This document shows positions 35,393 through 50,970 of a stretch of DNA of 64,000 nucleotides, piece after piece. A program made the translations under genes and the position numbers. The notes below the pieces were generated by a model. It had not been told where the DNA came from, searched no databases, and saw only the letters and a program-made list of their open reading frames with translations. Every line of letters begins with the position of its first letter. Position 1 is the stretch's first letter. The DNA is from Phyllosticta citribraziliensis (lineage: Eukaryota), in assembly GCF_038025025.1 (NCBI RefSeq), contig NW_027117342.1, forward strand, positions 930,001 to 994,000, written 5' to 3'.

Positions 35393-35930
35393 TCAGTAAA
35401 TGCCCACTTCGTGCGAACAGAAAAGCTGGCTGACAATTACCTAGAGCTTATCATCCATGTCTTTAAATACACAATTCTTTATATAGTTCTTAACTTTATC
35501 TATATAGGCGACCGTAATAGTCAATGCCTTTATAAACTAGTTATTAGCAGCATTATAGTATCCTTTAGTAAAGGGGTAATAGCTATAGATATAGTTAATA
35601 TTATTATAGAGCTTAGTAATAAATCCCTTACTTATGCCTCTCTACTCATTTTTAATACTTTTAATTATAGCTACTATATACTACTACTTCTTCCTAATAG
35701 TAGTAATCTTCTCCTTAAAATTTAATACTTATTAGAATTAAATCTCCTTTATTATAAGAGGGTCCTATACCTAAACTGCCTTATTAGACTCTTCTAAAGT
35801 ATAAGTCTATATAGAGATGCTATACTTTTTAAGGAAGGCTAATAGGTCTAGTTTCTTCTATTTTTTATATTAGTATAGTAAGGATCTAAATAGCCTTTAG
35901 ATATAATAATTATATATCTTTCCTAAGTCT
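35393..35930 (-). pseudogene. RIP-damaged gene relic at the block edge, unknown family
   Basis: Minus frame ...FKEKITTIRKK**YIVAII...KNCVFKDMDDKL*VIVSQLFCSHEVIY-like end with TGA at 35393-35395; internal stops are TAG, as expected from RIP of CAG/TGG. 5' limit approximate. Confidence 0.4.
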
Positions 35931-38900
35931 ATTATATAGAAATCTTAGTTGGTCGACCAGATAAGCAGGTTAGATTAGGGGGCAGTTATAGTATAGTAGA
36001 GAGGCTAGGGAGTAGAGGAGTTATAGGTATAAGATTATATAAATAGTAGGGGTAGGTTTAGTACCTTAGCTTATACTTACTTCCTATTCTATACTAGTAC
36101 CCTTACTAGATAACGTTTATATACTAGTAGTAGTAGATAGGTACTATATATTACTCTCCCTAGTATATTATGCCTCTCTTTAATGCCGCTATATGCACTA
36201 TTAGCTAGCACTTTATTTATATACTTCTTAACTCTACTGCTTACTTCTTATTCTTAGACTTTAACGCGCTTAGTCTACTTATAAGCTATAGTAGTTTCTT
36301 AATTAGCTTAGTCTATCCTATAGATAGATCTACTACTAAGTAATTTAGAAGATTATATAGCATCCTTAATAATACTACCTGCTAGATAGAAGTACGCCTA
36401 TAGTCTACTAATACTGCCTATAAGTATATAACTTAGGCAAACTATAAGTTATAGCATATTAGTATCCTTTTACTACTACCTTTCTTAATAAATTAGTTTT
36501 AGTGCATCCTTATTCTAACTTTTAGGTATTAGAGCTAATAATGTCTACTAGAGGAGCTTATACTACTATTCTATCTATATATACCTTACTACTTATACTA
36601 ATAAATAGAGTTACCTATAGCATGCTACCTTCTAACTTCTTAAGCTTTATTATACTAAGATGGTAGAGGATGCATCAGCTATAGTAGTAAGAAAGAAAGC
36701 TTAAGTAAAAGAGATATTTAACTTCTTAGAAAGGAAAATAATCCTAAAGTAAGGATACTAGCTTAGAATATTAGCACTTACTATTAGAGCTAATAAGCTT
36801 CTTTACATCCTATAGTAATAGCAAGCCTAACTTAAGCCACTCTATAATAATCTAGTTAATAAAGTTATAATAATTATTAATCACCTCTACTACTATACAA
36901 TTTAGCCTAGAGATAAGATAGCTAATATAGTTATTAATACTCTAATAGAAGCTCTATATAAGGCCATATTAAATAAGTAAGGTTATAATAAACTATAGGG
37001 GTTTAAATGCTTCTACTATACTATCTTATACTATATATTATAGAAGTATAGAGAAGCCCTATAAACTCTCTTATAAAGGGTTTATATATCTACTATAGAC
37101 TTTAAATACTCAGATATTATTAGCCTTAAACTACTAGAAATCTTTAATAATAACTATAATCTACTCTAAGAGGGGATTAATTATAAGGAGCGCGCATAGT
37201 ACTAGTTTAATATTTTAGCTAAGCTTATAGCTATCTAGCTCTAGTATTAGGAACGCATTAAAGAGTCGTAGATAATATATATAGTAGAGATAGATATATA
37301 TAAGGTTAAAGTATAGTTAAGTAAGGGTCTAAAGATATAGTCTCTAGAGGAAGAGTAGATTTATAAAAGACTTAAGTCTATAAGGGTGCTCTACTTAATA
37401 TAAGCTTAGGAGGATATAGATAGTCTTATTATTATATAGTTAATAATATATATCTAATAGCTTATAGACTTCTAGAACGCAGGCCCTAATATTAACTTTA
37501 ATAACCTTAAAAAGATAGTAACCCTATAGAAGGAAAGACTATTATACTAAAGGCTTAATAATATATCTAATAAAGTCTTTACTAAGGGAAGTAGCAGCCT
37601 AGGACAGGTTTCTTAATTATATAGATAGCTTCTAATTTAATGCTATTCTAAGATCCTTCTTATAGGCAGTTTTAGTATTAGTAAAGATAGAGTAGATTAT
37701 ATAAGTAGGTTAGTAGTTCTACGTTCCTATTAAGTCCTTACCAGCTAAGTATTATAACATTCGCTATTTAAGCTGTTTAAATCCATTCTATTAAGGACCG
37801 GCTAGGGTTATATAGTAATATAGTAATATAGTATAGGTATTAATATAGCTTTAAGATATAGCATAGTACTACTACTTTTAAATAGTAGGCAGCCTATATA
37901 TAGTATTCTATAGTAGAGCCAGCCTAGTAATAGGCCAGCCTATATAACTACCAACCTATTTTAGGTAAGGTAGCTGCGCCTTTAATACCTACATCCTAGA
38001 TAGAACATCGTGCCCTAATATTATCTTACTTAATACCTATAGTGTTCCTTATATCTATAACTTACTATACGTATTTACTGCTATATTAGCTTTATAACTT
38101 AAAGAAGACCCTTAGGTTGCCTTTATTATATATAGCCTTATTACTAACTTTATAAGGAGGTAACTACTACTTTAATACTAGACTCTAAAACTTACCCTCT
38201 ACTTATAAACCCTCTTAGCCCGCCGTAAAACCTCTAACTAATATAATACTAGAGCTTTACTACCTTAACATCCTTAGCTTAAGATTAGAGTAATTTTCTA
38301 CGCCCTAAAAATACTCTCTTATAATATATAGAGCCTACTTAGAACCTGGCTATTATAAGCTTAGTTCTTAGACCAAGACTTAGTTCTATTATGCTAGGTA
38401 TATACGCGTTATAGGAGTTAAATGCGATACTAATACTATCTATATAGGAGTAAAGTCTAGATAGATCTATAAAACTTTAACTAATATAGATGCCTTATCC
38501 CTTACTAATAAAGGCCTAGACTATTTAACTAGCTAAATAAAGCCATCCTCTATAGTTATAAGATAGAGTTTTTTATATATATAATAACTTTTAAGCTAAG
38601 GCTGATCCACCCTCTACCTAGTATAATTATTATACTAAAGGGCATATATAAAGGGCGTCTATATAGAGCTCTAGGAGATTAGTATTTAACCTGTAGCTAT
38701 ATCTATTATTATATCTATATAGATATTTATATAACTATTACTAATACTATATAGCTAACTAAGGTATCCCTATAGATCTACTATTACCTCTACTACCTTA
38801 GGTAGTAGTATAATATCTTAATAGATAGGTCTACTATAACTAAAGTACCTAAGGACTAGTTAGTATATTATAAACTATACTAATTATAAAAGATAATAGG

Positions 38901-39586
38901 ATACTTACTCTAGTATTACTAGCCCTAGCTACCCCTTAGCTATATATTCTATAGAAGGCAGGCTAAACCTCCCTAAAGCCTATATAACTTTCTTAGTAAT
39001 GTGTTTAAGGAAGCTGATAACAGCTATAGATATAGTATTAGGAATAAATACTAGATGAGATTTATATATAATCTAGACTAGGATTTTAAAGAAGTTAAGG
39101 AGTAGTATAAGAGGGTATAGAATAAGGCGATGCTCTATAAGGACCCTGCTTAAGAGGTAGTAATTAAGGAGTAGTAACGCCGCTATAAAGTAGAATACTA
39201 GTTAATAGAGATTCCTGCAGGCTTTAATAGCTTTAGACGCATATAGGAGGTATACTAATATGGGATTATAATAGGTTTAAGGGCTATAGGGTAGAGTGAC
39301 TAATTTTACTTTATACTACCTTATTAGATTTTAGAATACATTTAAAATTTTATTTCTTAGATTAACTAAGCAGCATTCTACTAGCTTTTTAAAAGTATAG
39401 TATATAAAGGTAGCAGACCTTTAATTCTAAACTATTTTACCTATACTCTACTCTTATCTACCTTACTCTACTCTACCCCACGCCAATCTATAGCATATAT
39501 ATATTAACCTAGCTTGTCTAATAAACCCTAAATTCCTTATTTTACCTCTATTAGCTCTAGTACTATAAGAAGTAATATCCTACAGC

Positions 39587-40009
39587 TATCACGATAGGCA
39601 TACACGCGCCTATATAAGTACTAGGGCCAGTATAGACGAACCTAGTATTATATAGTTATAGGAAGTATAAGCCTCACCTCAGGTAGTAGCCTACTATAGC
39701 TTAGGCTAAAACCTATAGGCTAGTACTAGCTACTATAGCCTAGTACTAGCTACTATAGCCTTAGGAAGATACTATATAACAGCCTATTAATACCTTACCT
39801 TTATAACTTACCTAATAATGACTAAGGACCCTTATATAAAGGATAAGAGGTAGAATAGTATAAAGGAAGGACTAGGAAATATATAGGTAGTAAGTATCTT
39901 TTATATTTTATTCTTTTAACTTATTAGATTTAATTAAGATATATATATATTCTCTAGTAGTTTGCCTTTAGCCCTTACCTATATAATAAGAAATCTATAA
40001 GTTGTAATA
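39587..40009 (+). repeat. 5' LTR (423 bp)
   Basis: Colinear without indels with 47368-47790; starts TATCACGA and ends TTGTAATA (inferred ancestral TGTCACGA...TCGTGACA); internal 20-bp tandem duplication CTAGTACTAGCTACTATAGC. Confidence 0.95.
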
Positions 40010-40338
40010 GATATAAAAGATTATTTTAAGTTTTAGCTCTATCCTACTTCTTTACCTATAAAGGTATTATAATATTTAACCTAAGTGATGTTATATATAG
40101 CTATAGTCTTATATAAGACTGCTTATTACTTTTCTCTAGTAAACCTAAGTTATCTTTATTAGGCGCATCGGTGTTATCTAAGGACTAAGGAGTATTAAGT
40201 ATATATTAACTATAGAAGTCTTTAGTTAAGGCTATAGGGTAGTATATAAATATTTAGGAGGTATCCTATCTATAACCTGCTTAAGGAACATTCTAAGTAG
40301 AAGACTATAAAGATAGTATAGCTAAGAATAAAGCTAAT

Positions 40339-41770
40339 ATGTCTAGTACTACTAAAGGTATTAGTACTGGTTAATTAACTTAATAAGATTCGCGCGAAGA
40401 GACTAAAGATTCGCGTAATACTAGACTTTTATTAAATAATAATAAGAGAGGACCTACCCCTATTCTCCTATATAATTTCTACTTAGTCCTAGTAGTAGAG
40501 GTGAAAGAATATACCTAAGACCTAGGGTTAACTTATACGATTTAAGCTCTAGTTATAGAGGCGTTTATAAAGGTACCGCGCTTAGATATTAATTAATTTA
40601 AATCTAAGATTGTATCTTTAAATAAGTCTTAAGTGTAGTAGTAACTAAACCGCGCGTGAAGGTAGAACTGGGCTCTTAAGTAAATACTCTTAAACTATAC
40701 TAATAGGCTAAGGGAAGCCTTAAGGGAAGGATATATTAGGCCCTCTCTATTAGGCTAGAACCTAAGACCTATTACTCTCTCTTAAGATCCTCCTACCTAT
40801 ATAAGGGAAACTACTACTAAAACCTCTACTTTATCTTTAAGTAGTAAGAAATACTAAAGTAGTAAGGTTCCTAATCCTCCTCTTCTTACTAATAGAGAAG
40901 ACCCCTTATATAAATACTAGACCCTTCTTATATAAAATAAAATTAAATAAAACTATAATTACTTTACTAAAGATATAGTAGAGGAGACTAAATAGAATAT
41001 TATAGGTTATATTATTTCCTATATTAGTAGAGAAGTCTTATATTACTTAACTCCTTTCCTTACTTCTTATATAAAGGCTAATAAAGTTACTCTAGATAAG
41101 GATATCTTTAAATTCCTAGATAACCTCCTCTAGAGTCTATATAAATATAAGAATATAAAGAAGTAGTTATACTCTCTTATATACTATATTTCTATAGACC
41201 TTTAGAAGTTTTAATTAAACTTTATATAATTAGCCTTAGATGTAGATCTTCCCTAGGAATAGTAGAAAGAGGACTTTTATAATATAATAGATCCTCTCCT
41301 TTAAACCTATATAGTTACTATAGAGTAAGATAAGGATATTAACTTTTATAAGTACCTCTAATAAGCCTACCCTATTACTTAAAGTCTTAGTAACTACTAT
41401 TCTAACTATAGAAAACTAACACTTATATTATATAAGGAAAGAGTAAAGAAGAGATAATAAGAATAAGTAAAGATAACTACCTTAGGTAGTATAAGTGCTT
41501 TATCTTCTAGTTATACCTAGGCGCGATCTATATCTAGGGCTCCCTTATATAATATAACCTGTAAAGGTAAAGTAGAAGTCTATATAGAGATTAGACTATA
41601 TAATTACTGCGGCTAGTTTAGCTATTTATAGAGGTAATGCCTATAACTAGAGATGAAGGTAATAGAGTTAGTAGAAGAAGAAAGTACTAAAGATATCTAT
41701 ATAAATAAAGGAGATTAGTCTTTATTAGAAAATAATAAGACCTAGGTAAAGTCTCCTGCCTTAGGTCTAA
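40339..41770 (+). pseudogene. gag relic of the gypsy element
   Basis: ATG at ~40339 and zinc-knuckle relic tat-aat-tac-tgc-ggc-tag-ttt-agc-tat-tta-tag-agg-taa-tgc (C-N-Y-C-G-Q-F-G-H-L-W-R-Q-C after de-RIP); limits approximate. Confidence 0.65.
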
Positions 41771-41799
41771 ACTTAGAGTAATATATATTAAAGGTTCTT

Positions 41800-44700
41800 A
41801 TATAAATCTTAGTTACTTTATTAGAGGTGTACCCTTTACTATATAAACCTTAATTATATCTAATAGCTGCGCCTTAGAAATTTGTGCCCTAGCTAATACT
41901 AGTACTAGTAGTATAAGTTTTATTTACTCTAAGCTACTACTAACTCTCTAGTCTATAGGTGCTATAAAAAAGAGAATAATAGGTAAAGGGCTTAATATTA
42001 CTAGGTTTAACTAATATATAAATAAGAAAGTTAATTTTTACTTTTATCTTTAACTCTATTTCTAAGATTAAATGGTTTCTACTTATGCTTTTATTTGTAA
42101 TATTAGCTGTAATAACATAATTCTTAGGTAATAGTTTTTTAACTAGTATAATATCCTCCTAGACTGTAAATAATATAAACTAGTCTAGAGATAGCTACTA
42201 GTTAACTAGTCCTTTTAGCATCTTCTATACCTACTAAAAATCTCTATATGAAGTAAAGAACTGCAGAAAAAATACTAAGTAGATATAGACTATAGAGATA
42301 AAAAATTTAATAAATGCCTCCTTCCCTTAGTATAGGTTATTAAGGGAATTAAATTCTAAACTTAAGATGTATTTAAGCTTTCTATTTATAAAATATAAGT
42401 TACGCTAATAGAGATCTATACTATTAACCTTATATAAGTTTAAGCGGCTCTTAAAGATAAGGAAACTAAGGAATTACTAGCTTCTAAGCTACTAGCTGCT
42501 TATAAGGAATTTTAAGATATATTTTCTAAAATAGAGTCTAATAAGCTACTACTATATTATATAGGGGTTAATTATAAAATATCTCTTATATATAATAGTC
42601 TACTAGAGCTTCTACCTAGTCCTCTCTATAGAATATCTCTAGAGTAGCTTAAGGCTATAAAAGAGTATATTATTAAGAACCTTTAGAAAGGCTTTATTAC
42701 TAAGAGCTTTACCGCCTATACTTCTCCTATTCTTATAGTGAAAAAGCCTAGTAGGGGATAGAGATTTTATATAGACTACTAATAGCTTAATAAATAAACT
42801 ACTAAGGATTTACACCCCCTCCCTCTTATTATAGAGTTACTTTAGCGCGTTAGAAAGGGCAAGATTTATACTAAGCTTAATATTTAATAAGCTTTCTACT
42901 ATATCTATCTTACTAAGGATTCTAAAGATAAAACCACTTTCTATATAAGATATAGGTTATTTAAATACTGTGTCTTACCTTTTAGATTAAGTAATAGACT
43001 AGTAGCCTTTTAATATTTTATTAACCAGGTTCTCTTTAAGTATTTAGACGATTTTATTATGGCTTTTATAGATAATATACTTATTATCTCTAAAAACCCT
43101 ATAGAGTACAAGGAACAAGTAAAAAAAGTACTAGTAAGACTATAAAAAGTAGGACTATAGGTAGATTTAAAGAAGAGCGAGTTTTTAGTTACTCATATAA
43201 AGTTTTTTAGATATATTATTTCTATAGAAGGCATTTAAATGGACCTAGATAAGGTAGAACCTATATAAAACTAGCTAATACTAAAAACCCTTAAAGCTCT
43301 TTAATCCTTCCTAGGTTTTTATAATTTCTACTAATGATTTCTCCCTAACTATAGATAAATTAGCTGACTATTAGAGAAACTATACTCTAAGGTAAAATAG
43401 TAATAACTAGGACCCCTAGAAGAAGAGGTAATTTAGTAACTTAAGAAGCTAATATGTAGTAATATACTTCTAGCTAACTATAACCCTACTCTTAATACTT
43501 ATATAGAGACTGATATAAGTGATAGAGTTACTATAGGTGTTTTAATACAGCTCTAATAACCTTTATATAATTAGAAACTAGTAGCCTTCTACTCTAAGAT
43601 AATAGCAGACGCAGAACTTTATTATAGAATTTTAGATAAAGAACTGCTGGCTATTAAGAATAGACTAGAAGAATAGAGACTAATACTTATTAGCCTTAAA
43701 AAACCTTTTCTTATAATTATAGACTATTAGGTATTAGAGTACTACTCTACTAAACGACAACTTAATTAATAATAAGCTAGATAGTCTAAGTTTTTTATAG
43801 AATTCTATATATAATTCTCCTATTAACTAGGAAAGGAAAATATTATTACTAATTACCTTACTTAAAAATAAGAAGACCTAAAGACTTAAAAAGAAAAAGT
43901 AAGGGCTATATAAGAGATATGCCTTATCCTACTAGAGACTATTATCCCTCTTTCTATTTTAGAATAAGAACTTCCTCCTCTAGTGTTATTTTTAGATGAA
44001 CTCCTCTATATAAACTAGGAAGATTCTAAATTAGAACTCTAGAGATAGAAAGCCCTCTTAAAAGACCTTAAATAAAGAAATAGTTAGGAACTAAAAGATG
44101 GTCTTTTACTATAATATAGTACCCTCTTTATACTAGATTATGATAACCTCTATATAAGAATGCTTAATACTTTATATACTACCTATATAACTGCCTATCC
44201 TAGTATTATAAAGATGTAAAAACTCCTTAAGTAATATTACTACTAGCTAGCTATAAATTGTATAATTAATATTTATAGGCAAGGATGCCATATTTACTAC
44301 TAAATAAAAGAGTTTTATAATAAAGACCTAGGCCTTCTATAACCCCTAGAGATTCCTACTTAACCCTAGTAATACTTAGCTATAGATTTTAAAGAGATGC
44401 CTAAAGACTAAAAGGGCTATAATATAATCCTAGTTATTATAGACTAGTTAAGTTAAAGAACCTTTAGTTTACCTTATATAAAAAAGATTAATACTAAAGG
44501 AGTCTCTAGGCTCTTTTATAAATATATCTACTATATTTATAGAAACCCTAAGTCTATTCTATCTAACTAAGGCCCTTAGTTCATCTTAGTGTTTATAAAT
44601 AAACTATATAAGCTGACTAGTATAGAGCAGCATTTTAACTTATCCTACTACTCTTAAACTAATAGTATTATAGAGATTGTTAATTAGTATCTTATATAAA

Positions 44701-45560
44701 GATTAAGACCTTTTATTAATTACTTTTAGAATGATTAGTCTAATCTTCTACTATTAATAGACCTCGCACAAGTAATACTTCCCTATAAAGCTACTAGACT
44801 TTTACCTTTTAAGATTAAGTTAGGATATTCCCCTTAAATATACTATAACTAATAATAAAGAACTAAGACCCCCTAGTAACTAGAGAAGATGGCTTGTATA
44901 GTAGTATAAATACTATAAAAGAGAAGATAAGAAGCTTTTAAATTTATAAAGAATCTTATTCTTAAATCCTAAGAGTATATATACTAATAAGCTAATAAAT
45001 ACTGTCGCGCGCTAGACTTTATAGTTAGAGATTATATCTATATTAAGAAAACAGGATAGTCTACTAATTAGCTAAACCTTAAATTAGACTTTCCTAATAC
45101 TAGACCTTTTAAGATTATAGGAATAGAAGGATCCTCCTACATTCTTAATCTTTCCTTATATATAAAGATAGTTAACCTTTTCTATACTAATAGGCTATAT
45201 AAGGCTAAAATAGAATAGCTTCCTAGTTAGGAATATACTAAACCTAAACCTAAGATTATTTAAGACGAGCCTAAGTAGGAAGTAGACTATATTTAAGCTA
45301 GTTAAGTCTTATATAAGAAGCTTTAATACTAAGTTAAATAGACTAGATATAACTAAGATGACTAGTAGTATAATATAAGTTCTTTTAGTAGCGCGCTGTA
45401 GAAAATTAAAGAATTCTACTTATTATACCCTATTATAGTAGGACTACTAAAAAATCTAGAAAAATAGAAGGCTGCCTTCCTCTAAGAAGAACTATAGATT
45501 AAAATAGAAAGTAATAATAAAATAAGTCACTTAGGCCTATAGTAAATATTATAAAGATAT
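41800..45560 (+). pseudogene. pol relic: protease, reverse transcriptase, RNase H, integrase, chromodomain
   Basis: De-RIPped motifs: F(C)IDY(R)(Q)LN ~42765, FID(D)ILI ~43065, IETD(A)SD ~43503, DKELLAI ~43635, P(W)(Q)(H)LA(M)DF ~44363, S(D)(R)GP(Q)F ~44560, GPFKI ~45100, chromodomain (W)EVD(H)I..Y(R)VK(W)T(G)Y ~45270-45430. Confidence 0.9.
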
Positions 45561-45569
45561 AGAAAGTAG

Positions 45570-47300
45570 ACTAATTAGTTTACTATCTACCCTTATATAA
45601 ATACTATTAATCTTAACTTCTACTCTCTAGTCTCTTCTTTTTACTACTTATTCCCTACTATCCTCTTTTTTAATTTCTACCCTTTACTTCTTTCCTTTTC
45701 CCTTCTTCTTATTATAATAGTTATTATATAAGACTATCTCCTCTAGATCCTCTAGCTTATTAGGTAGGATATCCTACTTAGCTAAAGCCTAATTAGTTTA
45801 ATCCTCTAATCTAGCTTAGTAGTATAAGTTCTAGAACTCCTCTATACGAATTTTATCTTTACGCCTCTTATAATAAGCAGGCAGCTTGGCACCCTTTAAG
45901 TTACTTATAGTATAGTTAAGGTTACCTATACCTTAAAGGCAGTTAGTGCAGCGGCCCTATAAGAAACTAGGCAGGTAGTAACAACTAATAAACGCGCGAG
46001 TATTAGTATTATTATAATACTTAGTGTAGCTGATAGGGTTATTAATTCTAGTATACTAGATAAGAAAAGCATCGCACAAGCTAGCTTAAGTTTTAACTAA
46101 TAAGTAGTTAAATTACTAAGTAGAAACTATAATATATAAGTAAGGTATGCTATTACCTAAGGCTAAGATGCGCTTAGCGCGCTCTTATACTTTAGAACTA
46201 CTAAGGTGCGCCTATATAGTTAGTTAGATAAGAATCCCTTATATTAGTAAGATAAACTTACTTATGCGACACTCTCTATATTCTTATAAGGGATGTAAAG
46301 TGTCAACTTAAAGTCCTACTTAATAGGCGCCTTATTAGAGCTAACTGGTGACGCTGTAACGCGAATCTTACTATTACTACTATTATATAAAGTAGCAGGT
46401 AGTAAGTACTTAGCTGCTAGAACCTAATAAGCCGCAGGATTATAATAATAGCATATATAAGTAGGCTCTTTACCTTCTTCCTCTAAAACAGGCTGTATAA
46501 TAGCAAACTGGCGGCGACACGGTGTAATAGGCTGGTTAGTAGCAGGCTATACAGCTATAGATGATAAACCTTACGCGATAACTAATAATACTAATTAAGT
46601 AGAACCTAATACTATAGTATACTATAGGTAAAGTAATAAGCCTATAGCTATTCCTAGCTAAATAAGTAAAGCCTAGCCTAACTAAGTCTTTATATAAGTA
46701 TCCTCCTCTATAATTATATTAGTTAGTAAGACGGGACGACGAAGTAGTAAAACCTAGATATATAATACTACTTAATAGCCTAGATAATAATTAGTAATAG
46801 TTAGAGATAGAATTAAAGTTTACTTACCTTAGGACTCTATATAATAGTCCTTATAGATACTGCTAGCTAAAATAGCTCTCTAAGTAAGTAGTAACTGCAA
46901 TAGATTATAAATAACACTATATAATAATAACTTAATACCGCGACTCTTACGCGATAGTAATGAGTCCTAATAGACCAGACTATAATAAGCAGCAGATATA
47001 TTAAGTATACGGTAGCTAGGAATATCTACTTTACTATTAGTAGGGTATAAATTATTTAAATTATTAGAACCTTTATATGCAATAGTTAGTTTACTAGATT
47101 ATAGCTAAATTAGACTAGGATAACAACATACTTTAATAGGGAGCTTTAGATATAGCTAAGTAAGATAGTAACCTTCTACAGGTCGCGTGGTAAAAGAGAT
47201 AGTAATAGAAAGAGATAGTATAGTAGTAGACCTAGACTAATAATTATACTACGCGCATAGAACGCTTAAATTACTAAATTACTACTATTATACATTATAA
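45570..47300 (-). pseudogene. Extra antisense ORF relic within the gypsy element, DUF3716-like Cys-rich domain
   Basis: Minus frame across ~46085-45880 reads SLCDAFLI*YTRINNPISYTKYYNNTNTRAFISCYYLPSFL*GRCTNCL*GIGNLNYT, followed downstream by a K/E-rich tail; outer limits approximate. Confidence 0.55.
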
Positions 47301-47367
47301 GTCTATACCTATACGAGCGCCTATAGCTGCTAATTCCTACAATTTTAGCTTCTCTTTAGGGGGGGCA

Positions 47368-47790
47368 TATTATAATAGGTATATATATACCTATATAAGC
47401 ACTAGGGCCAGCATAGATAAACCTAGTATTATATAGTTATAGGAAGCACGAGCCTCACCTTAGGTAGCAGCCTGCTATAGCTTAGGCTAAAACCTGCAGG
47501 CTGGTACTAGCTACTACAGCCTGGTACTAGCTACTATAGCCTTAGGAAGATACCACGTAATAGCCTATTAATACCTTACCTTTATAACTTACCTAATAAT
47601 GACTAAGGACCCTTATATAAAGGATAAGAGGTAGAATAGTATAAAGGAAGGACTAGGAAATATATAGGTAGTAAGTATCTTTTATATTTTATTCTTTTAA
47701 CTTATTAGATTTAATTAAGATATATATATATTCTCTAGTAGTTTGCCTTTAGCCCTTACCTATATAATAAGAAATCTACAAGTCGTAATA
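47368..47790 (+). repeat. 3' LTR (423 bp)
   Basis: Direct repeat of 39587-40009, preceded by the G-rich PPT at 47358-47365. Confidence 0.95.
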
Positions 47791-48934
47791 ATAGCATAGT
47801 TAATTACTATTAACACCTAGTGCTATATTAATAGTATAAACTATTATAGCTCTTAACTATTTATAGGTAAGCTATACTCTACACCTCAGCCTTTAGATTA
47901 TATATACTGCTAATATCACGCTAGTACCTTACTATAGCAAATAATAATCTTAACTCATAATAAGTTTCCTAATAAGATGGTTATTATATAATAATCTTAC
48001 TAATATCTTTACTACCTTTTAAAGTTTGCCTTATAATAGCTGAGGCAGCAGTTAAATTAGAAGATAACTAGGGATCTTAGGGTTACTAGCTACTAGATAA
48101 AGTATATAGTGCCTTCCTATTACTATATATTTTAAAGTAATAGTAGGAGGCCATGCTATTTACTATAGAGATAAAGATAAACATTCTAATCTATATTATA
48201 CCTAAGGTTATTAATATCAGCTAGATCCGCGTTATTTAACTAGATATACTAAATATCTATAAAGGCATAACTAGAAGCCTCCTCTTAAAGGCTAAGAAGA
48301 TTTTAGTTAGTATTTATTTCTAGGGAAACAGGTTTAGCTTTAGAAATAGTAAAGCAATTACTAAATATATATAGGTAATCTAATACCTAGTATAAAATAG
48401 AGATATTAAGCGAGATATTTATTTCTAATTCTCCTAAATCTCTAACATCCTTATTTTAGCCTTAGAGTTTAAGTATACTATTAAGTGCTACCTATCCTTA
48501 TAGAGGAACTTATATTTAAGTCTTCCTATTTACTTTAAAATACACACCTATTATAATGTCAGCCACAACTTAACGTGTTAGACTATTAGCCTTAGATTAG
48601 ATAAGAAAGCCTACAGCACCTAAATCTATTTAGCTAACTAGATGTTCTACTAGGTAGTTAAGATAAGGAACCAGATTAGGGGATATAGCTTAAAGTATAT
48701 ACTACTTATCCTTATTAACTAATTTATGCTTAATTTCTTTAACTATCTAGTCTAGAATGTATATAAATAGATTATAGGACGCTAAAAGAAAAGTAACCCT
48801 AGCTATAGCTCTAGGTAAATACATCTATAAAACTGATAGTTAATTATATAATATAGAAAGGACTAATAGAAGGCAAAATCCCTTACTTTTAAAGTTAGCT
48901 TAGAGCTACCTGCTATTAGGTAGAGCGCTGCTTT

Positions 48935-49078
48935 ATAGGAAGATAAAGTAGAGGAAGTAATTTTAGAATTAGAGAGAGTTCTAGTTCTAGTTAAAAGTTA
49001 TACTTTATAGGAAGATAGAGAGGGTAAGATAATCTTAGAATTAGATAGAGTTTTAGTTCTAGTTAAAATTTATACTCT
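48935..49078. repeat. Two diverged 72-bp tandem units
   Basis: TTAGAATTAGA(G/T)AGAGTT(C/T)TAGTTCTAGTTAAAA(G/T)TTATACT recurs at 48963 and 49035. Confidence 0.8.
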
Positions 49079-49416
49079 AGATTTTTTTACTTAGCTAAAG
49101 TATTGCATTTTTAGAAGTAGAGGCCTTAAAGGCATAGATAATAGTATATATAGATGGCGTAAAGAGGTAAAGGGCGTGTACCCCTTATATTAAATACTTA
49201 TTAAAACTTTTAGATATACCTCTTTATTAACTAACCGCTGTAGTAGATACAATTCCTAGTATTTAGACTATTCTTATATAATAAAGGGCTCAGATTTAGG
49301 CGTCTAGGTAGATGCTATATATAGATAGTTTAATCTATCTTACTAAGCCTATAATAGGGATCTAGGTATAAAAATAGACTCCTCCTAGTTACTATAATCT
49401 TTCCTATATCTTAACG

Positions 49417-49795
49417 CCACCTCTAGACTCTTACCTTACTACTACTATCTAGATTATCTACTATAACCCTTTCTACGTCTCTATATACCACCTCTAGTAA
49501 CTCACCTTACTACTACTATCTAGATCATCTACTATAACCCTTTCTACGTCTCTATATACCACCTCTAGCAACTTACCTTACTACTACTATCTAAATTATC
49601 TACTATAACCCTTTCTATATCTCTATATACCACCTCTAGTAACTTACCTTACTACTACTATCTAGATTATCTACTATAACCCTTTCTATATCTCTATATA
49701 CCACCTCTAGCAACTTACCTTACTACTACTATCTAAATTATCTACTATAACCCTTTCTATATCTCTATATACTACCTCTAGTAACTCCCTTTACT
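49417..49795. repeat. 71-bp minisatellite, 5 full copies plus a partial sixth
   Basis: C(C/T)ACCTCTAG recurs at 49417, 49488, 49559, 49630, 49701, 49772; copies differ mostly by C/T and G/A changes. Confidence 0.95.
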
Positions 49796-49889
49796 TTCTA
49801 CTATCTTAAGCGCCACTATAGCTATAGTATGCCGTGGCTATTAATATCTCTCTATACACTATATCTACTAACTAGATAGGATAGGTAGC

Positions 49890-50970
49890 TACATCATCTA
49901 TAATATCTATAGAGATTAAGACTGGCAAGAAGCGTGGCCTTAGTAAATGCTAGGTAGGTATTTAAATTATTATAAAGGGGAAACTACTAATACAATCTAT
50001 ATAGAGTATAGGATCTTATAAGCGACAAGCTATAGTAGATACTAGAGTAGTAAAAATAAAGTGCCTAGCTAATAAAGTAGATAAAATATATAAGAAGTAT
50101 TGCCTCCTTAAGACTAAGATTAAGGCGAACTGTATTTAAGGAAATACTATTAATAGTTATAGGTCTACTTTTATAGTCCTACTTAAGATAGGACTTGTAT
50201 TATTACTTATAATAGTCTCTAGCTAGCTAGCTAGGGGGGTGGTTAATGCTATCTTTAGCCAGCCTAGTTATAACGTAAAATAGGAGCTTAGTTAAGTCTA
50301 TACTATTCTAGAAAATACTTTAGATGCTATTTAGATAATTAATATTAACTAAGACTCCCCTATAAGTATTAATCTACTAGACTGGATTATTACTAGCCTA
50401 AAGACTAAAGTTAGTTAGCTTAAGTAAAGTATTAAGCTACTTAGCTAATTCCTTCCTAAGCAGCCAACTATTAAGGACCTCTAGGTAAAGAGAGTAATAG
50501 CTAGATAATACCTTAAGGACTTATAATCCTCTAGCTAATCTTAATAGCTTAACTATAACTTCCTAGAGCTTAATTAGATCTATAATCTATTAGGATAATA
50601 TATTTAAATTTATTAAGGTTTTATTAACCTTAAGGAAGAGAACTAGGAGTATTCTAAAGATATTAATAGTATTTTAATAAGTCTAAAGTTAATATAGGAG
50701 GGAGATAATAATAAGCTATATATCTTATCTTAAGATCTTACTTAATGCGCCCTAAGACTCCTTAGAGCAGCTGATAAGATTATAAGGAATACTATTAGAG
50801 ATAACGCCTACTAGATTAGTAATAATAATGACTAATATAATAGTAAGAGTAATAGTAATAATGCTAAGCTCTTAGAATAATGCTATTATAGTAAGCATCT
50901 ATTAGGGTAAAATAGTAATAACTAACTTAGCTCTACCCTAGATAAGAATAAAAATAAGATAAAAGAAGAC
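49890..50970 (+). pseudogene. RIP-damaged, intron-containing gene relic of unknown family
   Basis: Frame IEIKTGKKRGLSKC, intron-like GTAGGT..CTAAT..TAG at ~49954-50004, then a long frame interrupted only by TAA/TAG. Confidence 0.4.

Follow-up and report, generated by a model that had tools for sequence, protein, structure and literature searches.

What occupies the long interval between pol and the 3′ LTR of a heavily mutated retrotransposon in the fungus Phyllosticta citribraziliensis, and why would the element carry it? The question was raised by a sequence-only reading of the window – the whole stretch of 64,000 nucleotides analysed here (contig NW_027117342.1, positions 930,001 to 994,000 of the forward strand) – which proposed that the interval encodes, antisense to gag-pol, an accessory metal-binding and possibly DNA-binding or anti-silencing protein with a DUF3716-like cysteine cluster.

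The element and its extra segment

Gene-rich DNA, of about 55% GC, gives way at about 35,500 of the window to a block that is AT-rich and marked by RIP, and within it an 8.2-kb RIP-mutated element spans 39587–47790. Its LTRs (39587–40009 and 47368–47790, both on the plus strand) are 94.8% identical over 401 nt and are bounded by a 5-bp target-site duplication (39582–39586, plus strand, and 47791–47795), with one transition between the two copies. The pol region (42447–45518, plus strand) comprises reverse transcriptase (RT), RNase H, integrase and a chromodomain at about 45275–45430, and holds 93 stops in the window copy; a polypurine tract (PPT), a G-run, lies on the same strand at 47358–47365. 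RT and RNase H of this copy give Pfam matches (frame 40002), while integrase and chromodomain are covered by a one-frame match to Pol relative P0006 (residues 284–1304) that ends at 45518; the chromodomain stretch, scanned alone, gave no Pfam match. With its LTRs, target-site duplication, PPT and an RT–RNase H–integrase order closed by a C-terminal chromodomain, the element is a Ty3/gypsy chromovirus. The spacing of about 1.8 kb first reported between chromodomain and PPT is borne out by these positions.

With 40 of 58 candidates scored, at least 40 family members at 90–95% identity to the window copy are present in the genome, and a sister subfamily in the same genome stands at 76–88% identity. 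Among the full-length pol matches listed, each contains at least 73 stops. The antisense gene is dead in every copy examined; its two exons carry 9–13 and 8–13 stops per copy in all 34 gap-free copies.

At the two spots tested, the RIP-marked DNA on either side of the element (35500–39586 and 47800–64000) proved single-copy; it lacks a gypsy pol match and contains tandem repeats of 71 and 72 nt at 48931–49866. These flanks are possibly one large old element that the chromovirus copy entered. In the flanks of the copies L033–L069, 43 of 64 pieces are without any CpG, as against about 7 per kb retained in the element copies: most insertions went into AT-rich DNA that was older and already fully depleted. 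At L173:3510–10000, adjoining a sister-subfamily copy of the chromovirus, lies another gypsy family, less strongly marked by RIP (43–56% GC), in which pol and LTR are only about 130 nt apart.

In all 37 copies fetched, the accessory segment is colinear with pol and the 3′ LTR. Because these copies had been picked by the segment itself, the search was also run in reverse, from pol ends: the segment is present beside 39 of 40 pol-end matches in the genome (36 paired with a segment match, three more found through other searches and one not shown), and a nested insertion, which had been envisaged should other copies lack the segment, can therefore be dismissed. The segment is also without internal terminal repeats. 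Its position beside 39 of 40 pol ends, together with the third-position bias described below, upholds the proposal that the gene is an integral part of the element, antisense to gag-pol. In L067 and L069, an LTR of the same family is inserted in the accessory gene at the same point (equivalent to 46605 of the window), and both have an additional LTR just past the 3′ LTR.

Exons, introns and constraint

Frames were called from TGA-bearing columns and transversions in place of all-copy stop counts: with RIP close to saturation, the pol frame itself has 38 all-copy stop columns, and such counts did not tell frames apart. The single continuous frame that the sequence-only reading had drawn across the 1.8 kb breaks up on this analysis. 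Upstream of 46262, the motif frame (minus strand, codons starting at 46499−3n) contains TGA-bearing stop columns without any sense codon, and two predicted introns interrupt the gene. Intron B (46261–46212 on the minus strand; 50 nt, phase 0) has a GTAAGT donor and a YAG acceptor in 38 of 38 sequences, with a branch-like CTAAC, and joins exactly the motif frame and another minus-strand frame, in which coding continues over 46262–46779. Intron A (46827–46780, minus strand; 48 or 51 nt) shows a GT donor in 26 of 36 sequences and a YAG acceptor in all 36. The splice signals of both are kept in most of 10 more distant sister copies, and the introns are the parts most diverged from one sister copy (12.8 and 15.6 transversions per 100). 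From sequence features such as these, the antisense gene is predicted to be split by two GT–AG introns. Two contig sets presumed to be RNA-derived yielded 19 records with no joint at either intron, an uninformative sample. A third intron, considered because of a donor-like column at 47131, was rejected when no matching acceptor was found 41–75 nt downstream.

The last exon (45684–46211, minus strand) would encode the six-Cys cluster, an acidic stretch and a basic, Lys-rich end, and it has no indel relative to the sister copy. Frameshifts against that copy cluster at 45686–45653, just past the Lys-rich stretch, which is why the stop is placed there, probably at 45686–45684; most likely, about 170 nt separate the end of the antisense coding frame, near 45686, from the pol match. 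The minus-strand motif is found where the sequence-only reading had put it, as is the K/E-rich tail, and the tail does point towards pol as described, but it does not reach the pol end. The middle exon (46262–46779, minus strand) contains one all-copy stop column in 178 codons and has no Pfam match; its indels against the sister copy total multiples of three. Upstream of intron A lies a candidate first exon or 5′ leader (46828–47098, minus strand), whose coding status is unsupported – 10 of 27 transversions against the sister copy fall at third positions (p 0.41), indels shift the frame and Pfam gives no match – and the start codon was not located. Next to it, the stretch from 47099 to about 47360 is the least diverged from the sister copy (1.9 transversions per 100), and for that reason the non-coding DNA at 47099–47357 is a candidate antisense promoter.

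Selection was judged from transversions only, since RIP does not produce them. Third positions take 17 of 26 transversions against one sister copy in the middle exon (p 0.0008) and 22 of 44 in the last exon (p 0.016), with 37 of 49 in the pol control. Second-position rates amount to 0.24–0.93 times the four-fold-site rates in the exons and to 0–0.05 times in pol (one misaligned pol ratio, 1.92, was set aside). Pairwise tests are significant in 2 of 10 comparisons, which share ancestry and are not independent; within the young family, the third-position bias is weak (5 of 7 and 7 of 14 in the exons). Judged by these substitution patterns, the two long exons are coding and were constrained while the family diverged, more weakly than pol.

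The six-cysteine cluster and its relatives

The cluster encoded at 45912–46028 (minus strand) has the form C-x2-C-x11-C-x10-C-x2-C-x8-C, the last spacer being eight residues long and not seven, as had been read. Across 38 sequences (stops read as X), the six columns hold Cys or Tyr only: Cys occurs at 46028, 46019, 45983, 45950, 45941 and 45914 in 12, 10, 7, 27, 25 and 6 of the 38, respectively, with Tyr elsewhere. The window copy does have its three intact Cys, at 45983, 45950 and 45941, and the three that had been deduced from TAY codons – at 46028, 46019 and 45914 – are indeed Cys in other copies, at the frequencies just given. Intact Cys number four at most in any one copy; the sister copies keep all mapped Cys/Tyr columns.

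Pfam scans of 30 copies, all of them RIP-mutated, matched DUF3716 (PF12511) in four, at 13–19 bits (E 0.0013–0.099), and no other family; the remaining 26, the window copy included, had no Pfam match, and none of the 30 reaches the cut-off of 22 bits. Two intact host DUF3716 genes lie in non-RIP DNA of the genome (L031 on G000 C11 and L032 on G000 C12), the former being nearer to the element cluster. One of the host proteins scores 35.6 bits, above the cut-off, and as a query finds three element copies (E 0.001–0.011); in the opposite direction, a profile of the element copies scores a host protein at 17.4 bits versus 2.1 for the best of 500 shuffles. A profile–profile comparison gave E 0.0003 with a probability of only 38%. 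The six Cys of the element cluster correspond to the same six that are invariant in the two host proteins. The similarity between element and host is limited to about 55 residues at 28%, the other exons being without a match. Wider searches added little: an alignment of 24 copies found nothing among longer proteins, a profile search of 1.84 billion proteins (representatives) returned two matches only, both repeat-driven, and the host DUF3716 domain, compared with longer proteins, found itself only. The antisense product is likely to belong to DUF3716, an assignment that sits below the formal cut-off. The DUF3716 likeness suggested at the outset is therefore upheld as far as the exclusive matches of four copies and the reciprocal host matches go, but all element scores fall under the cut-off and the window copy is unmatched.

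A Zn(II)2Cys6 cluster of the Gal4 type, which is spaced C-x2-C-x6-C, was also considered. The second spacer here is x11, and neither the copies nor the host proteins match Zn_clus; by sequence, the cluster is not of the Gal4 type. The host DUF3716 domain has no solved-structure match, its structural model is of low confidence (pLDDT 45.5) and a structure Atlas row labelled ‘Zn(2)-C6’ reached TM 0.43, under the threshold. Two further loci near contig ends, L153 (C5:17289) and L154 (C13:1340782), match the beginning half of the DUF3716 cluster with the same score; the frame matched in L153 lacks the later Cys. They are possibly duplicated subtelomeric remnants.

The arrangement has precedents. 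Boty of Botrytis carries an antisense extra gene, brtn, between pol and the 3′ LTR, according to the passages on it in several papers (PMC7264820, PMC4227169, PMC8365987, PMC5987419, 10.1101/2021.04.13.439636). Both elements are fungal, chromodomain-bearing gypsy elements with an antisense gene at this position, and they are likened by layout alone: the present gene has a DUF3716-like cluster, in dead copies only, and the citing passages on BRTN name no domain. The two traits of the brtn-type layout are both found here: most copies have the gene, antisense, between pol and the 3′ LTR, and it is conserved as a coding unit. In plants, the aORF-3R of Grande, RIRE2, Retand and PvRetro13 are antisense extra ORFs with the same position and orientation as the present gene, likewise kept in most copies; gene23 of Grande has been shown to have its own promoter and a nuclear location (PMC7264820). 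The plant aORFs belong to other protein families, without relatives outside transposons (PMC7264820), whereas the present gene has host relatives.

Transposon-borne DUF3716 genes are themselves on record. REP9 of Zymoseptoria tritici, a class II, IS3EU-like element, carries REP9-1 and REP9-2, which, as in the present family, have been pseudogenised by RIP, in their case in sister species; unlike the chromovirus, REP9 is a DNA transposon: it ends in terminal inverted repeats, holds two DUF3716 genes and has active copies (PMC8232023). The literature found on DUF3716/PF12511, including the accessible part of PMC5225507, describes none on LTR elements, which is weak evidence of absence as most subscription papers lay outside the search.

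Among gypsy relatives, such a gene is the exception. Intact relatives of Pol led to 82 loci, many from a few metagenomes; 57 have a mapped pol end and 35 of these a 3′ LTR. At most 217 nt follow pol in 29 of the 35, and DUF3716 had no match in any of the 82 loci. One intact relative on a metagenome contig has an antisense gene behind pol (L096:4438–5355, minus strand) with three GT donor-like sites and a cluster of the form C-x2-C-x9-C-x9-C-x2-C-x6-C, followed by a second gag (tandem copies); this cluster has no Pfam match, no profile match to DUF3716 and only Atlas matches under 0.9. Another intact relative, with identical LTR ends, has a 563-residue, K/E-rich sense ORF of no clear Pfam family between pol and the 3′ LTR (L077:6825–8513, plus strand). 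Extra genes are patchy in the clade and not required for transposition, and the antisense gene is dispensable for the clade.

Candidate functions of the product

A second feature of the element bears on function. The word CGCGCG, intact in at least two copies at 17 columns, forms 15 separate sites per 8.2 kb: seven in the 1.8-kb accessory region (45993, 46073, 46263, 46572, 46918, 47074/47076 and 47184, spanning 45993–47189), six in gag-pol and one in each LTR. This count is a lower bound, because RIP only removes C and G. Host genes, used as a control, hold 15 in 35 kb, giving P 4e-6 for 15 or more in the element, with the word chosen after looking and the LTR site counted twice. Elsewhere, 18 Pol relatives contain six in 105 kb, a gene-less gypsy of the same genome none in 6.5 kb despite 238 CpG, a 1.1-kb control repeat with 13 copies none, and the RIP-mutated flanks five in 58 kb. 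CpG survival under RIP is 0.41 within CGCGCG versus 0.11 for isolated CpG, so that a shuffle test and a ranking among CG-NN-CG words are inflated; conservation of the sites in sister copies is indistinguishable from background. What is new here is this excess in an element carrying an antisense DUF3716-like gene. Otherwise the locus surprises less, being a dead copy that follows a layout on record from Boty since 2011.

With a probability of roughly 55%, we take the segment to be a true accessory gene whose product most likely bound DNA and regulated, in trans, the element family that encoded it; its candidate targets are the CGCGCG sites. A promoter of its own, within the 3′ LTR or adjacent to the PPT, would drive an antisense transcript towards pol. 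The introns would outlast retrotransposition on the established principle that antisense introns persist: the genomic RNA that is packaged is the opposite strand and would be unspliced there. The product, of at least about 348 residues, would be a nuclear protein with a basic tail in which, we infer, the six conserved Cys bind metal, probably zinc. It may have governed the expression of its own family or its escape from silencing; RIP evidently destroyed the family anyway.

DNA binding is a best guess by analogy with a host protein. Fusarium graminearum PSC58 is a DUF3716 protein with the Neurospora ortholog NCU05718, both encoded by chromosomal genes and of the same domain family as the element's cluster, and NCU05718 binds double-stranded TTAGGG directly, the binding part not being mapped to DUF3716 (PMC10776026, PMC4650311). 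A DNA binder that an element encodes and selection maintains would, most simply, target the element itself. An anti-silencing role is hypothetical, and the CGCGCG excess is the only observation of this analysis relevant to it. No function has been known for the antisense extra genes of LTR retrotransposons (PMC7264820); with a named domain, a DNA-binding host relative and a candidate word, that function becomes assayable on intact homologs.

The segment could instead be a host DUF3716 gene captured in reverse, with its introns and promoter, and carried as a passenger under weak selection for some effect on the host. A source is at hand in the two intact DUF3716 genes of the genome, one of them clearly related in its Cys cluster, and the relaxation of selection relative to pol would suit a passenger; a transposon-borne DUF3716 gene alters host sporulation in Zymoseptoria, as stated in the available portion of PMC8232023. 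Yet the confinement of host similarity to the Cys-cluster region, with the other exons unmatched, argues against a recent capture from either host gene, and capture would leave the CGCGCG excess through gag-pol and LTR unexplained. We regard this origin as rather unlikely.

It is similarly doubtful, and a little more so, that the gene served the cycle of the element in some other way, be it nuclear import, targeting or negative control, or was kept mainly for its antisense transcript, with CGCGCG unrelated. Roles of this kind have been proposed for the antisense extra ORFs of plants (PMC7264820). The gene and pol would be transcribed convergently, the basic tail would fit nuclear localisation, and the copies lie mostly in old AT-rich DNA, as the 43 of 64 flank pieces without CpG attest. 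A role for the RNA alone sits poorly with codon-level selection and six invariant Cys/Tyr columns, which favour a protein, and the chromodomain already offers the element a targeting route.

That Cys and Tyr merely line up by chance in non-coding DNA mutated by RIP, or that the segment is an unrelated nested insertion, is highly improbable and largely refuted: the window copy taken alone has no Pfam match and the search of 1.84 billion proteins gave only repeat-driven hits, but the segment is present at 39 of 40 pol ends and lacks internal terminal repeats, its splice sites are in phase, its indels keep the frame, its transversions favour third positions, and its homology with a DUF3716 protein that passes the cut-off is reciprocal, all of which speaks for a gene.

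The regulator reading can be extended, speculatively. DUF3716 might be a transposon-borne, sequence-specific DNA binder, and fungal elements of several classes might recognise themselves through CG-NN-CG palindromes and so counter silencing, a generalisation that we consider improbable. Equally tentative is the more specific proposal that the present gene, spliced and antisense within its LTR retrotransposon, was a fungal analogue of VANC, with CGCGCG as its word here. VANC proteins are the anti-silencing proteins of Arabidopsis VANDAL elements, and the likeness is functional only: in both cases the element that encodes the protein is enriched in a short word. Host, element class and protein are unrelated, and the VANC motifs have an orientation, are not palindromic and lie mainly outside coding sequence (PMC5735166). 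CGCGCG, in contrast, is palindromic, with several sites inside coding frames. A CGTACG array was not found in the element family (one or two columns), nor does L096, the intact relative with an antisense six-Cys gene, have a CGCGCG array. Were self-recognition true, fungal retrotransposons would possess a protein-based counter-measure to heterochromatin silencing.

Strong word excesses also occur in two of the Pol relatives, on contigs that end at or just past pol: L117 contains CGTACGAA 8 times (0.1 expected) and L092 contains CCGTAA 34 times (3.8 expected).
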